From assembly GCA_965203555.1 (NCBI GenBank), contig CBDBCY010000004.1:2912001-2976000 (forward strand): a stretch of 64,000 nt of DNA, given 5' to 3'. A program made the position numbers and the translations under genes. The notes under the pieces were generated by a model, which ran no database searches, had not been told where the DNA came from, and worked only from the letters and a program-made list of their open reading frames with translations. This document shows positions 656 to 5,755 of the stretch, one piece after another; position 1 is the first letter of the stretch; the number at the start of each line of letters is the position of its first letter. Origin of the DNA: Acidimicrobiia bacterium (GTDB taxonomy: Bacteria > Actinomycetota > Acidimicrobiia > Spongiisociales > ZC4RG35).

Positions 656-808
656 CCCTTCCCTCCCAAAAGTCCGAAGAAAAACCTGGGAAATCCGCCC
701 TTCGCTGGGCTGACCCTGGGCATATTTGATGACGACCATCGAAATTCCACTCAATACGGCCCTGCGCGTTTTTTTGGGATTGGTGGTCTGGCTGGTGGGT
801 GGTGGGGT

Positions 809-881
809 TCATGTTAGGAGGAGTGCTCGGGCGGCGTAGTTGTGGGGGTTGGTGAAGCCGTGGGCGGTGCGTCGGAGGGTT
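809..881 (-). pseudogene. Detached C-terminal tail of the ISL3 transposase
   Basis: Reads TLRRTAHGFTNPHNYAARALLLT*, which completes the ISL3 motif 'EGxNNxIKxxxRxAxGFxN' begun at ~4660-4636. Confidence 0.85.
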
Positions 882-988
882 TGATGCTCCTATGTTTGTC
901 AAATTGGGGTTTGGGGGGTGGTGTGATGACGATCATCGAAAGTCCCCAGAGTCGATCATCGAAATTCCCCACCCTGGGTTGGGTGGTT

Positions 989-1771
989 TTAGGCTAGCAG
1001 GTCTCCTTTCGGTCGGTGTTTTCGGGCTTGGGCTTGGTAGCTTCTGAGGCGGTAGCTGTCGCCGGTGATGGTGAACACCACGCTTTTGTGGAGCAGTCGG
1101 TCGAGCATGGCGGCGGCGATGGTGTGGTCGGAGAAGATCTCTCCCCACGAGGCGACACCGAGGTTGGTGGTGAGAATGATCGACCCTTTTCCGTACCGTC
1201 TGGAGATGACCTGGAACAGGGTGGCGGCGTCTTCTGCCGGCATGGGCAGATAGCCCAGTTCGTCGATGATCAACACTTTGGGGGTGTTGAAGAACCGCAA
1301 CGTTTGGGCCCATCTTCCTTGTAGGGCGGCTTTGCGGCACCGCGCCGCCAGGTCGGCTGCGGTGGTGTAGTACACCTTGTGTCCGGTGTCTACCGCGGCG
1401 CGGCCCAGGATGACCGCCAGCATGGTTTTGCCCACGCCGGGTGGTCCGATGAACAAAACGTTGGTGGCGTCGGTCAGGTAGGCGCCGGTGGCGAGTTCTC
1501 GTACCATTTTCTCGTCGATGCTGGGTTGGGCGGTGAAGTCGAAGTCTTCCAGTTTCCAGCGGGTGGGGAAGTTGGCCAGTTTGAGACGGGTTTCCCATCG
1601 CCGCTGTTCGGTGGTCTCTACTTCTACTCGAAGTAGACCTTCAAGGAACTCGGTGTGGCTTTCACGGTTGGTTCGTGCCTGTTCGAGGTGGGTGGGGAGC
1701 GCCTCGGCCGCGGCGGGTAGGTTGAGGTAGGCCAGATGGCCTCGTAGTTGTTGGTACACCGATTGGTTCAT
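989..1771 (-). CDS. istB: IS21 helper ATPase IstB
   Basis: LEDFDFTAQPS, Walker A GPPGVGKT, Walker B LIIDELGYLP, AMLDRLLH, GDSYRLR. The start MNQSVY overlaps the istA stop. Confidence 0.95.
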   Translation of the reverse strand: MNQSVYQQLRGHLAYLNLPAAAEALPTHLEQARTNRESHTEFLEGLLRVEVETTEQRRWETRLKLANFPTRWKLEDFDFTAQPSIDEKMVRELATGAYLTDATNVLFIGPPGVGKTMLAVILGRAAVDTGHKVYYTTAADLAARCRKAALQGRWAQTLRFFNTPKVLIIDELGYLPMPAEDAATLFQVISRRYGKGSIILTTNLGVASWGEIFSDHTIAAAMLDRLLHKSVVFTITGDSYRLRSYQAQARKHRPKGDLLA

Positions 1772-3069
1772 CACAGACCCGCTTTTCGGTTTTGTTGGTC
1801 GATGTGCCGCTGGTACACCTCCAGATCGATCACCGTTTCTGTGTACAGGTCTCCGATACCGGCGGCGATAGCCAAAGCCGCGTCCGATGGCGGACGGTTG
1901 GGTTTGGGTTTGCACGGTGGTTTGGTGGTGAACTCGGCCAGGACCACGTTCTCCAAAGCAGCGGTGTGCTCGGGTAGCCGAACCACCCGTCCCATACCGC
2001 GGGGTGCCTGCTGGTGGGTAGCGACCAGCCGGCCACTGGCCGAGAACATGCTGATGGTGGGGTCACCGAGCCTCCAACGGACGGTGACCTGGGTTCCTAT
2101 CACCCCTGGTGGCACCGAGTATCGGTTACCGCGTACCGATACCAGCCCGTTGGATGTCACCCTGCGCTCCAGGATCCCTTCTGCCGGGTAAGGCACCGCA
2201 GGAAGCTCGAGGAGAGGCTCGTTATCGGCCAGCTCGCCCACCGTGCTCTCCCGCCGTGGGCGAAGATCGCCCACGGTCTGGCAGAAGCTGTCCAGGCTGT
2301 GCTGTGCTTCGGCGATGCTGGTCACCGCTGCGGTGCGCCACCACCGCTGAGAGACATAGTGGATGGCCTTTTCCACCACGCCTTTCCGTTGGGGACGGCG
2401 CGGTGGGCACGGATCGACAGCCACCCCGTAGTGTTTGGCTACCCCAACGAACGACGGCTGGATACGACCACTGGCCGCCACCACGGTAGCCATCCGATCC
2501 ACCCTCCACCGCCGCGGGGTACCCTCCAGTCGTCTCAACACCTGGTCGAGACCCTCCACCAAATGGGGTTGGTCCTGGCGGGACGTGATCCACGCCCGAA
2601 ACCGGCCCGAGTGCGACAGCACTCCCACCAGCACATGAGCGGTGGCTCCCCACGGGGCGTCACGTAGTTCCACCCAGTCCCACTGGCACTCCTCACCCGG
2701 TGGATGATCAATAATCGCCGTGGCCCGGCCCCTGGTACCCGCACAGGCGCCACACAACGGCCGCAGGCCCCGAAGACGGACCTTCCGCACAAACGTCACA
2801 TAGCTCTGCTCATAGCCCAAAGCCACCACCTCGTCGAACAGCGCCGACCCCCACACATGCGGATCATCAGACAACCGCTGCCGCACATACGCCTCGAACT
2901 CATCAAACAGATCCGTCTCTGCCCGGGCACGCTCGCCCGGGGCTCGCCCGTCCGACAGATACGCCCGTATCGTTTTCCGGTCTCTTCCCAAATGACGAGC
3001 AATAGCCGAGATCGACCACCCCCGCCTCCTCAAAGCATGAACTTCCACGCACTCCTCCAGTACCAACAT
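1771..3069 (-). CDS. istA: IS21 transposase IstA
   Basis: N-terminal HTH (GWSISAIARHLGRDRKTIRAYL), PGEECQWDW, DRM, PQRKGVVEK DDE core, GNRYSVP C-terminal domain. GGAGAGGAG RBS upstream of ATG 3069. Confidence 0.95.
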   Translation of the reverse strand: MLVLEECVEVHALRRRGWSISAIARHLGRDRKTIRAYLSDGRAPGERARAETDLFDEFEAYVRQRLSDDPHVWGSALFDEVVALGYEQSYVTFVRKVRLRGLRPLCGACAGTRGRATAIIDHPPGEECQWDWVELRDAPWGATAHVLVGVLSHSGRFRAWITSRQDQPHLVEGLDQVLRRLEGTPRRWRVDRMATVVAASGRIQPSFVGVAKHYGVAVDPCPPRRPQRKGVVEKAIHYVSQRWWRTAAVTSIAEAQHSLDSFCQTVGDLRPRRESTVGELADNEPLLELPAVPYPAEGILERRVTSNGLVSVRGNRYSVPPGVIGTQVTVRWRLGDPTISMFSASGRLVATHQQAPRGMGRVVRLPEHTAALENVVLAEFTTKPPCKPKPNRPPSDAALAIAAGIGDLYTETVIDLEVYQRHIDQQNRKAGL

Positions 3070-3171
3070 AAGGGGATAGGGCTCCTCTCCACAGCTAGTG
3101 ACATGACAATCGCCTAGCTTGGAGAGAGCCCTACCCAACAACGGGTATTTGCTCCCAGAGGGTGGGGAATT

Positions 3172-4404
3172 TCAGTGATCGAGACTGGGGAATTTCAGTG
3201 ATCGCCAACAGGTGAGCCAGTGTTGGTATTGGGTGGCGAGTTGGTGGTTGTGGTAGAGGCCTCGTTCGAGTTGTGAGAGGCGGTTTGGGTGGGTTTGGAG
3301 GGCTATGGCGGCGCGAGCCAGAGTTGTTTGGGTTTTTTGGCGTAGGCAGCGTAGATCGCTGCCGTTGGGTGTTTGGTTCGGGTTGGTCAGCAGTCGGTAG
3401 ACCTGGCGGGCGATGTAGCGTTTCAGGCAGCGGATGATCTCTTTGCGGGTTTTGCCTTCGGCTTGTCGCCGTTGGGCGTATTCGATGGTGCGGGGGTCGG
3501 TGCGTAGCCGTACTGTGGCTATACGCCAGAGGGCGTTGTTGGCTTGGCGGTCGCCGCCGCGGTTGAGTCGGTGACGCACTATGCGTCCCGACGACGCTTG
3601 GACGGGGCTTGCGCCGCAGAGAGCGGCGAAAGACGCTTCTGTGCGCATGCGGTGGGGGTTGTCCCCGGCGGTGACCAGCAGCGCGGCGGCGGTTTCGGGG
3701 CCGATCCCACCGGCAGCCAGCAGCGCCGGGTTGGCCCGGGCGCAGAGCTGTTTGATTTCGGTGTCGAGTTGTTGGATCTCCCAGGTAAGTGCTTGGTATC
3801 GGCGGGCCAACAGACGCAACGCTTTCTTGGCATAGGCGATATTGGTCCGGTTCGCGCCGGGACGATAGGCGGCGCAGACCTTCACCCGGGCTTTCGGGGA
3901 AAGGCTCCCGAGTTGGTGTTTGACCTGGTCGGGAGCGGTGACCACCAGAGCGTGCAGCTGGTTGATGGTCTGGGTGCGGGCCTTGGCGGCCGAACGGCGG
4001 ACCACCCGAAGCATCCTGATCGCTTCGACTGGTCCGTCGCCGCTTTTGGGTGTCCCGGTGGCCTGTCCGCTCAAAACAGCCCGGGCCGCGGCCTGAGCGT
4101 CGGTGGCGTCGGTCTTGCCGAACCGGCGGCGCAGTTGACGGTTGGGACGGTTCACTTCCACTACCTCGACACCGATTCTCACCAGGTAGCGGGTCAGGCC
4201 GGCGCCGTAGCTGCCGGTGCCCTCTATTCCGACCTGGGCAACGTTGCCGTGTGACCCCAGCCAGTTGCCCAGTTGTTCATAACCGGCTGTGTCGGTTCCG
4301 AACGATGCCGTGCCCAACACCCGACCGGTGGTATCCACCACCGCCGCCACATGAACATCGCGGTGGGTGTCCACCCCACCGAACACATCAACCCGATCTG
4401 ACAT
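3172..4404 (-). CDS. IS110-family DEDD recombinase with C-terminal HTH extension (last residues replaced by IS21 end sequence)
   Basis: GVDTH, GIEGTGSYG, GKTDATDA (D-E-D-D) and Tnp-domain serine motif ASSGRIVRHRLNRGGDRQAN. The native end ...HWLTTPQTPI* is recoverable at 919-899. GAGGAG RBS before ATG 4404. Confidence 0.93.
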   Translation of the reverse strand: MSDRVDVFGGVDTHRDVHVAAVVDTTGRVLGTASFGTDTAGYEQLGNWLGSHGNVAQVGIEGTGSYGAGLTRYLVRIGVEVVEVNRPNRQLRRRFGKTDATDAQAAARAVLSGQATGTPKSGDGPVEAIRMLRVVRRSAAKARTQTINQLHALVVTAPDQVKHQLGSLSPKARVKVCAAYRPGANRTNIAYAKKALRLLARRYQALTWEIQQLDTEIKQLCARANPALLAAGGIGPETAAALLVTAGDNPHRMRTEASFAALCGASPVQASSGRIVRHRLNRGGDRQANNALWRIATVRLRTDPRTIEYAQRRQAEGKTRKEIIRCLKRYIARQVYRLLTNPNQTPNGSDLRCLRQKTQTTLARAAIALQTHPNRLSQLERGLYHNHQLATQYQHWLTCWRSLKFPSLDH

Positions 4405-4409
4405 TCGTC

Positions 4410-4625
4410 TCTTCTCCTCATTTAGAATCGGTTCTGTTCTCCCTGACCCGAAAAGGCGGTGGACGGACCACTCAAGTGGCAAGAGCAAGGCTCCTATCAG
4501 GTCACAGCCGCCCTGTCGGGAGAGCGCCGCCCCCAGGCCGGAAGCAGGCCGACAAATCAAACCAAAGGCACAAACAGGCCAGGTTAGGTTGGAGTCAGAC
4601 CCGCCCCGGCCCAGGGGCACCTATA
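4410..4625 (-). ncRNA. Putative IS110 bridge RNA in the left non-coding end (boundaries approximate)
   Basis: In 5'-3' order on the minus strand: CAACCTAA (4591-4584), GGTTTG (4563-4558), ATAGGAGC (4497-4490), TGAGTG (4474-4469). These match left target, right target, left donor and right donor respectively. Confidence 0.75.
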
Positions 4626-4635
4626 AGTATGAGTG

Positions 4636-5755
4636 GATGAGGTTGTTGATGCCTTCCAGGGATCCGTTCGAACGGCGGGCGTGGTGCCAGTTGAGGATTT
4701 CTTTTGACCAGTTGAGGACGGTGGTGACGGTGTGGTAGTACTCGGGTATGTGTCCGGTTTCGTACAGGGTGACGAACCGTTCGAGGGCATCGAGCGCGGT
4801 GGGGAGGTCTTTGGCCTCATAGAGGCCGTAGAGTTGTTGGAGAGCGCACCGAGGCGACCCGCAGACGCGGGTACGCCTCGAATAGGTGTCGGAGACGTTT
4901 TTTCTCTTCGGGGGTGATATTGGCCTTTCTTTTGAGGAGCAGGTACCGGGCGCGGAACAGATCCGGATGCCAGGCGGGTTTGACGCCGGGCGACTGGCGG
5001 CGTTGCAGATCCCGGCGTACCAGGGTCAGTCCTTCGGTGAACCAGCGGGCGGCGTGGAACCGGTCCAGGACATGACAGGCCGAAGGAAGGTAGCGGACGA
5101 TGGCCGCCTGGTAGGAACGGGAACCGTCGGAGACCACGACCTGTACGTTCTGGCGCCAGCGGGGTCCCTGCTCGATGAAGAACCTGCTCAACGCCTGTTT
5201 GGACCGCCCAGGGAACATGGACAGGATCTCGCCGGTGTCGCCGTTGACAACAACGGTTACATAGCGGTGGCGTTTTCGGATCGATGTTTCGTCGATCAGC
5301 AGCACCCGGCACCTTTGGCGACGGCGCCGGGTTCGGATCAAATGGGACCAGTCGGTGACCAGACCCATGATCAGATGCCAACTGATCTGGTGGCGGCGGG
5401 CCACTGCCCGGATGGGCATGGCCTGGGCGTCCTGGACCAGCCGGCGGGCCAGCCGGCGCGTTATACCACCCACAAACTGGGGATGGGTTTCCATGTGCCG
5501 CCTCTCGCACCGGTCGCACACGTACCGTCGCTGCGTCCACAACAACACCGTCAAACGTCCGCTCACTTCCAGGTCGCGGATTCGCCGCTGGCGGCGGTCG
5601 TGCACCCGCCGGCACGACCGGCCACAATGCGGACACTCCGACAGCTTCTTCACCGAGACCACCTCCACCACCAGCTCCCCGACGGTGTCAACCACCACCT
5701 TCGTCACCCGCACACCACGCAGGTGCAACCGGACCGGCATAACATCAGCATTCAT
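4636..5755 (-). pseudogene. ISL3-family transposase, frameshifted (~4850) and interrupted by IS110
   Basis: Zinc finger CPHCG...CDRC, LLIDETS, VVSDGS, LDRFH. After ...AYPRLRVA a different frame continues LQQLYGLYE...WSKEILNWH...SNGSLEGINNLI. Confidence 0.9.

Follow-up and report, generated by a model that had tools for sequence, protein, structure and literature searches.

The segment at positions 4410-4635 (minus strand) of a 64,000-nt stretch of contig CBDBCY010000004.1 from an Acidimicrobiia bacterium (this whole stretch is called the window below) very probably encodes the bridge RNA of an insertion sequence of the IS110 family, with the ordinary, IS621-like layout of guides. It occupies the non-coding left end of the element and carries guides for the left target (LTG), the right target (RTG), the left donor (LDG), and the right donor (RDG) in this order on the minus strand. 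An earlier note on this DNA had read the four segments from the letters alone, and they are present at the places it gave. When the 230-nt left end was shuffled 20,000 times with its dinucleotides preserved, no shuffle had all four in the right order; taken singly, the segments appeared in 797 (left target, at least 7 of 8 matches), 2,618, 24, and 1,549 shuffles. The identity of the RNA, which that note had also proposed, is borne out by the families of the recombinase, the two-loop structure, and the covariation of the guides with their sites.

The element lies within an ISL3-family transposase gene (minus strand, 5755 to ~800), which it splits at 4635/883. Next to the right guides stand the handshake guides, the bases 3′ of RTG and RDG, which, once the top strands are exchanged, pair immediately upstream of the core in the other DNA; their pairing with the cognate DNA blocks the exchange (Hiraizumi 2024, PMC11208158; here and below, statements on known systems refer to parts of the cited papers). 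The segments of the RNA and of its DNA partners are as follows.

4405-4634, minus strand: non-coding left end of 230 nt, the probable bridge RNA gene (fold z-score -3.1; nhmmer profile; consensus structure)
4594-4607, minus strand: outer stem of the target loop, 5′ arm, pairing with 4553-4541
4591-4582, minus strand: LTG, CAACCTAA(CC) as DNA and CAACCUAACC as RNA, followed by UG
4567-4581, minus strand: inner hairpin of the target loop (GGC...GCC), helix 2, 97.5% paired
4563-4558, minus strand: RTG, GGTTTG (GGUUUG), pairing with top-strand C+AAACC
4557-4556, minus strand: handshake dinucleotide AU 3′ of RTG, complementary to the AT of the donor
4541-4553, minus strand: outer stem of the target loop, 3′ arm, helix 1
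4497-4488, minus strand: LDG, ATAGGAGC(CT) as DNA and AUAGGAGCCU as RNA
4474-4469, minus strand: RDG, TGAGTG (UGAGUG), pairing with left-end C+ACTCA
4468-4467, minus strand: handshake bases GU 3′ of RDG, of which G is complementary to the target base C 4636
4645-4636, minus strand: left target CAACCTCATC, the last 10 nt of the ISL3 5′ part
4635, minus strand: crossover C, left copy, common to target and element (junctions of copies A, B, and C and of the sister elements D87 and E72; empty sites)
4634, minus strand: A, the first base of the right donor arm, after which the element reads CTCATAC...
883-919, minus strand: right end of the IS110 element with the last six codons and the stop codon (901-899), a -35-like TTGACA (902-897), ATAGGAGCAT as left donor arm (893-884), and crossover C (883)
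882-878, minus strand: right target AAACC, the first 5 nt of the ISL3 3′ part

Homologous left ends were gathered from related loci, for which 80 of 184 relatives were kept from genome contigs and 80 of 278 from metagenome contigs. The nhmmer profile of the left end gave 164 matches in these loci, 144 of them with all four anchor positions. In the alignment, conserved frames flank hypervariable blocks, and the LTG block is hypervariable in 39 distinct left ends. Loop 1 follows the pattern GUCUGACYC, ~10 variable nt, a YGGC hairpin GCCUU, 5 variable nt, and GAUCUGUCGGC; loop 2 reads GUGACCUG, AUAGGAGCNU, a hairpin, 6 nt, and GUCC. The RNAalifold consensus of 40 diverse sequences has two internal loops, either of them enclosed by a long stem and containing a short hairpin, and all four guide blocks lie on unpaired loop strands, which answers the check proposed in the earlier note that the segments sit in two internal loops. 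The consensus pairs are formed in 94.5% of cells, compared with 85.3 ± 0.6% after shuffling (0 of 500 shuffles reached the observed value), and the proportion falls to 35-47% when the partners are slid by one to three columns. Compensatory changes on both sides were found in 18 of the 28 consensus pairs; helix 1 alone has 13 pairs, of which nine changed on both sides, with 95% of cells paired. When the sequence is folded singly, the guides are partly paired with their neighbours in the minimum free energy structure, and the assignment to loops rests instead on the alignment.

The protein encoded downstream of the RNA belongs to the expected family. It contains the Pfam domains DEDD_Tnp_IS110 (PF01548, 9.7e-26) and Transposase_20 (PF02371, 1.5e-18) and scores 202.6 bits against the NCBIfam model NF033542, "IS110 family RNA-guided transposase" (cut-off 140). 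The closest solved structures are IS621 (PDB 8wt6, E 3.3e-11) and then ISCro4 (9t56, E 6e-10). In the alignment with 8wt6, the motifs GvDt, iEgTG, ktDatDa, and sSG fall on the D/E/D/D/S positions, whose roles were described for IS621 (Hiraizumi 2024, PMC11208158). The intact gene has 404 codons and is present in copies B and C of the element; in the window copy, an inserted IS21-family element replaces the last six codons with 12 foreign ones.

Covariation of the target guides with the insertion sites of homologues was evaluated for 103 elements with both flanks known, which gave 77 non-redundant guide/flank combinations and 46 independent sites (mutual difference at >4 of 16 flank positions). 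On average, 7.43 of 9 LTG positions agree with the left flank of the same element, compared with 3.70 ± 0.21 for shuffled partners (maximum 4.48 in 2,000), and the five variable bases of RTG match at 3.87 of 5 compared with 1.36 ± 0.17 (maximum 1.96). The covariation that the earlier note had listed as a check is thus present for both target guides. At the level of complementarity and covariation, these data, together with the donor matches described below, show loop 1 to be fitted to the target and loop 2 to the joined ends of the element. It is highly improbable that the segments are sub-terminal repeats to which the transposase binds at the DNA level, or that they belong to a structure of the 5′ untranslated region with no role but to regulate transposase translation. 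LDG and RDG do copy the ends of the element itself (as direct and inverted repeats, respectively), and many insertion sequences use such repeats. However, what LTG and RTG copy is the flanking target and not the element, and in close relatives they differ when the insertion site differs; the compensatory changes in the stems point to RNA, and the recombinase belongs to a family for which guidance by RNA has been shown.

In 32 of the 46 sites, the left guide is contiguous with the target through crossover C (register R0). Among these 32 sites, 29-32 have a match at each of LTG positions 4-10, 21-22 at positions 2-3, and six at position 1. The usual target of the family, as read from the flanks, is eight left bases, C, and five right bases, i.e., the 14-nt layout of IS621 and IS622.

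The genome itself holds several insertions of known target. The intact IS110 element is 1,462 bp long, and there are three identical copies (A, B, and C, the window copy included) and two full-length sisters, D87 (87%) and E72 (72%). A further 12 partial matches of 29-345 nt with 72-97% identity are decayed fragments. The 18-mer of the left flank (≤1 mismatch) occurs in five ISL3 copies, of which three are occupied and two are empty. The three occupying elements are 100% identical over 1,426 nt, and the surrounding ISL3 flanks differ from each other at the same site, which points to repeated site-specific insertion. The two empty copies (C4:2168647, plus strand; C4:2645614, minus strand) read ...CAACAACCTCATC/CAAACCCTCC, the slash standing at the insertion point, and directly confirm the target that the earlier note had reconstituted; an intact ISL3 paralogue with an empty site (L186) encodes 397 aa. 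Contigs from three sequencing runs that may come from the source sample (X1, X2, and X3) were compared with positions 800-4800 of the window, and those of X1 and X3 show the empty-site joint, in which 881 is followed by 4634 with two letters in common.

E72 (G000:C4:2306190-2307990; L005/L173) lies within a DUF222-HNH endonuclease gene of 412 aa when intact, and the 17 paralogues of this gene in the genome (e.g., L185) are all without an insertion. These empty sites read ...GTCCA/CTGG..., with C at the crossover position in 16 of 17 and T in one; CTGGCA is found in 12. The junctions of E72 are ...GTCCA/C/ACTCA on the left and ...GCAT/C/TGGCA on the right. At least 18 copies of the DUF222-HNH gene with 79-93% identity are present in the 3.4-Mb genome, and the gene was found in 15 of 16 same-genus genomes searched. 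Both IS110 lineages, the ISL3-targeting one and E72, thus target multi-copy selfish genes. For D87, a search with its 301-nt left flank in 40 relatives gave no match, and its own genome has only three partial paralogues; with no empty site, the exact target of D87 is ambiguous (CC or CCC).

The earlier note had gone further and proposed a CA core and a new register, in which left guides of 8 nt stop 2 nt short of the core, so that the core itself is read by the right guides only. The window copy does give this appearance: its uninterrupted left matches of 6 nt (7/8) and 8 nt end 2 nt before CA, CA is the dinucleotide common to both junctions of copies A, B, and C, and position 9 of the donor is without LDG pairing in 28 of 31 combinations. 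Nevertheless, we consider this reading very unlikely. LTG and the left target are identical at 8 of 10 positions, with mismatches at positions 7 and 9, and LDG and the right end ATAGGAGCAT at 9 of 10, with a position 9 mismatch that is family-wide. Although the exact left runs stop 2 nt before CA, as the note stated, the base adjoining crossover C matches again in both loops (RNA C and target C in loop 1; RNA U and donor T in loop 2). The apparent gap is one mismatch per loop plus one further mismatch at target position 7. The appearance of 8 nt followed by a gap arises in the target loop because the window site is displaced by one base and has mismatches at 7 and 9.

The relatives argue in the same direction. 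The LTG of D87 differs from that of the window by one base, and its flank matches at 9 of 10 positions without a gap right up to C. Adjacent LTG positions are matched in nearly all R0 sites (positions 4-10, as given above), and it is the handshake guides in the other loop that read the "gap" bases; for the AT of the donor this holds in 101 of 103 elements (see below). As for the core, A is the base of the element, and the target base at this position varies and follows RTG: it is G in 12, A in 12, T in four, and C in four of the 32 R0 sites and agrees with RTG in 27. The empty sites of E72 have C, not CA, in common with the donor. That the right guides include the core is true here, but it marks no difference from IS621, in which the core is included in all four guide pairings (Durrant 2024, PMC11208160).

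A left guide displaced by one base was found in eight of the 46 sites, among them that of the element in the window, whose mismatches at 7 and 9 were described above. In these eight sites, LTG positions 7, 9, and 10 match in 5, 6, and 5 cases, respectively. This shifted register is not simply noise. The element of the window uses it in its three insertions, and so does a family that has inserted more than 10 times. The latter group (L026-L036, L043, L059, L061, and L072) comes from one metagenome-assembled genome, in which more than 10 copies have a single guide type and use the shifted register throughout. Its target (L026/L033), ...CCACTGAAATC/C/GATGAGCC, is a short REP-like motif that is repeated with differing wider flanks, and the guide matches it perfectly over 9 nt. 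In a distant subgroup (L134, L136, L131, L172, and L137; left end CACTGCG), LTG seems to extend to two bases beyond crossover C (N7-C-A-C), which would be a third register in the wider family.

The family may accordingly have two true left-guide geometries, with the duplex ending either on crossover C or one base earlier, as it always does in the donor loop; the window site would then be a regular case of the second geometry and no poor match. We regard this as a serious possibility, though somewhat short of an even chance. The eight shifted sites, with the perfect 9-nt matches of the L026/L033 group and the three ISL3 copies occupied by the element of the window, speak for it, and so does the matching layout of the donor loop, where LD10 T stands opposite LDG10 U in 28 of 31 combinations. 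The base after LTG is always U or C and could pair with the G opposite crossover C, and the handshake base fits in all eight shifted sites. On the other hand, the window site is the sole shifted-register case with a verified empty site, and a boundary shift by one base is possible in the other seven. The mismatches of the shifted class also cluster beside the core, and bulged or slipped pairing on sub-optimal sites would fit them as well.

The donor side was analyzed with the ends of each element. Of 137 elements whose upstream sequence was long enough, 123 have the exact reverse complement of their own RDG at the left end, and the 8-mer of the element's own LDG was found at the right end in 99 of 116; as these RDG and LDG words also served to locate the ends, the counts are partly circular, and the safeguard is the small chance expectation of an exact 6-mer or 8-mer in the windows searched, which was estimated rather than simulated. 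The matching left ends comprise 17 different hexamers (e.g., CACTCA, CACACA, CACTAA, and CATCGA), and the located ends cluster 40-50 nt upstream of LTG in 108 of 129 cases. Among 31 distinct donor combinations, donor position 9 equals LDG position 9 in only three, and position 10 (T) faces U in 28.

Handshake bases covary with the opposite partner. The two bases 3′ of RTG follow the last two bases of the donor in 101 of 103 elements (states AT 78, GT 20, and TT 3). The base 3′ of RDG corresponds to target base -1 in 38 of 46 sites, compared with 18.8 ± 2.8 after shuffling (maximum 29 in 5,000). Target base -1 is T in just four of the 46 sites; a T would pair with the handshake base of its own loop.

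A core dinucleotide identical in donor and target was not seen in E72, whose donor reads ...AT-C-AC... and whose empty target reads ...CA-C-TG.... Donor and empty target have just C in common. CA, TC, and CC were each tried as the core on the junctions of copy A, D87, and E72, and none fits all three, whereas C alone does. A wobble pairing of the UG after the left guides with a CA core was also considered and dropped, since the corresponding bases of the donor loop vary (TG 15, CG 6, GG 5, and others; n = 31). The lack of a shared dinucleotide bears on the IS621-type rule and not on membership of the family, which is defined by the protein and the RNA. The junctions always retain the top-strand base before C, with the base of the target on the left and the T of the donor on the right. 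This pattern fits either a stagger confined to C or mainly top-strand insertion, as is reported of CazIS110-1, two modes between which sequence data cannot separate. We tentatively suggest that this clade (Acidimicrobiia and relatives) recombines at a single shared nucleotide, with a base before C that is purposely unlike in donor and target and that the opposite loop reads through its handshake guide, and with two left-guide registers; this is a doubtful extension of the main finding, somewhat more likely to fail than to hold. If it is true, and the pattern is not due to mismatch tolerance with top-strand-only insertion, the "matching core" rule for choosing the sites of bridge recombinases would be relaxed.

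Here, we propose a mechanism for the element, largely by analogy with IS621. Excision would join the right and left ends into a circle, which places TTGACA (902-897) 17 bp from CATACT (4631-4626). Of 66 distinct right ends, 23 have TTGACA at one and the same distance, and a -10-like hexamer with four or five of six matches to TATAAT was found in 41 of 72 distinct left ends. From the putative promoter formed at the joint, the left end would be transcribed into an RNA of ~190 nt with two internal loops closed by stems. In loop 1, LTG has the sequence of the left target and would pair with the bottom strand, and RTG would pair with the top strand, which it complements from crossover C rightwards. 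In loop 2, LDG and RDG would act likewise on the joined ends of the element. The top strands are probably exchanged at the single invariant C, and the handshake bases would next pair with the incoming strands, AU with the AT of the donor and G with the target base C 4636. At the window site, one extra base between the left-guide duplex and C, in addition to the two mismatches, produced the apparent 2-nt gap.

Besides the partial circularity of the donor counts, several points weigh against the identification as an ordinary bridge RNA gene. Rfam 15 gave no match in 4404-4640 even at E values up to 10, and over 3000-5200 at the same limit three weak microRNA/HIV matches, all outside the left end. 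A joint between the right end and the left end, as expected for the circle, was absent from the X1-X3 contigs over 800-4800, contigs being prone to drop rare forms. The window copy, which has lost its last six codons and contains 2.3 kb of IS21, may be inactive. The left guide fits two registers (32 and 8 sites), which a simple rigid model does not predict, and six of the 46 independent sites (e.g., L037) fit their own guides in neither. One further element, L016 (in the 77 combinations, outside the 46 sites), has inserted where another guide type would, exactly in the repeated target of the L026/L033 type, and the flanks of L037 match nothing; possible causes are recombination between insertion sequence copies, guide turnover after insertion, or transport within a larger segment.

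The locus as a whole is a three-level nest, in which an IS21-family element lies in the IS110 element, itself inserted in the ISL3 gene. Its remaining parts are given below.

4636-5755, minus strand: ISL3 transposase gene, 5′ part, containing the target (Pfam DDE_Tnp_ISL3, Zn_ribbon_ISL3, and HTH_Tnp_ISL3)
3211-4404, minus strand: IS110 recombinase gene, codons 1-398, with the start codon at 4404
924-3210, minus strand: IS21-family element of 2,287 bp, with istA at 3141-1771 (456 aa) and istB at 1915-989 (308 aa)
800-882, minus strand: ISL3 gene, 3′ part; the reading frame runs on across the empty site

The IS21 element is flanked by a 4-bp target duplication, CACC, at 3214-3211 and 923-920. 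The form free of IS21 is seen in the X1, X2, and X3 contigs, which join 919 to 3211 with four letters in common; other IS21 copies in these contigs differ from that of the window at many positions. The right end of the IS110 element measures 16 nt from the stop codon to crossover C 883, and ATAGGAGCAT with C 883, A 882, and AACC after it (893-878) is the sole exact match in the window to the 12-mer searched for. In other loci (L030 at 2891-3110, L019 at ~2727-2749, L040, and L049), extra bridge-RNA-like matches or repeated right-end motifs were found directly downstream, which suggests tandem or nested IS110 copies.

With bridge RNAs, a route to programmable insertion, inversion, and excision of DNA has recently been discovered. 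The locus is a further natural IS110 bridge RNA and not surprising in itself, given that bridge RNAs with pairing patterns of 8-14 nt were predicted in 85.7% of catalogued IS110 elements (Durrant 2024, PMC11208160) and that the NCBI name of the family already contains "RNA-guided". It provides a clean natural data set, with three related elements that have different guides in one genome, two targets with verified empty sites, and ~140 homologous RNAs. The data show which guide reads which base and that donor and target need just one common base in this clade, and they correct the idea of a new "gapped" register; they may be of interest for target design with bridge recombinases.

The element shares most of its design with IS621 (Durrant 2024; Hiraizumi 2024). 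Both recombinases have a DEDD RuvC-like domain and a Tnp domain with an SG serine. The RNA comes from the left end upstream of the gene and has two pseudo-symmetric loops in the order LTG-RTG-LDG-RDG, in which the left guides are top-strand in sense and the right guides complementary to that strand. A 9-nt left guide and a target of ~14 nt are common to both in the usual register, and so are handshake guides located 3′ of the right ones, a base at the crossover itself that does not vary, and natural targets in repeated sequences with 0-2 mismatches. The promoter of IS621 is split over both ends, and here the two ends carry promoter-like motifs. The differences lie in the protein, which is distant (the match at E 3.3e-11 covers two local stretches), and in the details of pairing. 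IS621 shares a CT dinucleotide between donor and target, whereas the clade of the window shares one C. The handshake bases are at positions 6-7 in IS621 but abut the crossover base here, one position closer. RTG has 6 nt in the element of the window and 4 in IS621. The constant LDG mismatch at donor position 9, the two left-guide registers, and an RNA that no Rfam model finds also set the clade apart from IS621. A single shared base, abutting handshake bases, and two registers were not found stated in those parts of the main texts on IS110 bridge RNAs that were compared; the supplementary orthologue tables may list the clade.

IS622/ISCro4 (Perry et al. 2025, 10.1101/2025.05.14.653916; PDB 9t56) has the same 14-nt recognition, and its handshake bases are likewise necessarily unlike in donor and target. 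It differs in its matched CT/GT cores at positions 8-9, its handshake bases at 6-7, and its enterobacterial origin, the element of the window being of the Acidimicrobiia type. The possible agreement with CazIS110-1, which is reported to integrate mainly by top-strand insertion (Sun et al. 2025, 10.1101/2025.10.25.684509), is drawn from the junction sequences.

The seekRNA elements (Siddiquee et al. 2024, PMC11187229) also have a long non-coding region whose RNA selects the target, located upstream of tnp in the IS110 type, and likewise make no true target duplication. In IS1111 elements, in contrast, it is the right end that contains the RNA, and the sub-terminal inverted repeats are long. According to Durrant 2024 (PMC11208160), a long RNA-bearing right end and sub-terminal inverted repeats of 7-17 bp characterize the IS1111 group, whereas the right end described here is only 16 nt long and the RNA profile lies in the left end of 230 nt, as in the IS110 type.

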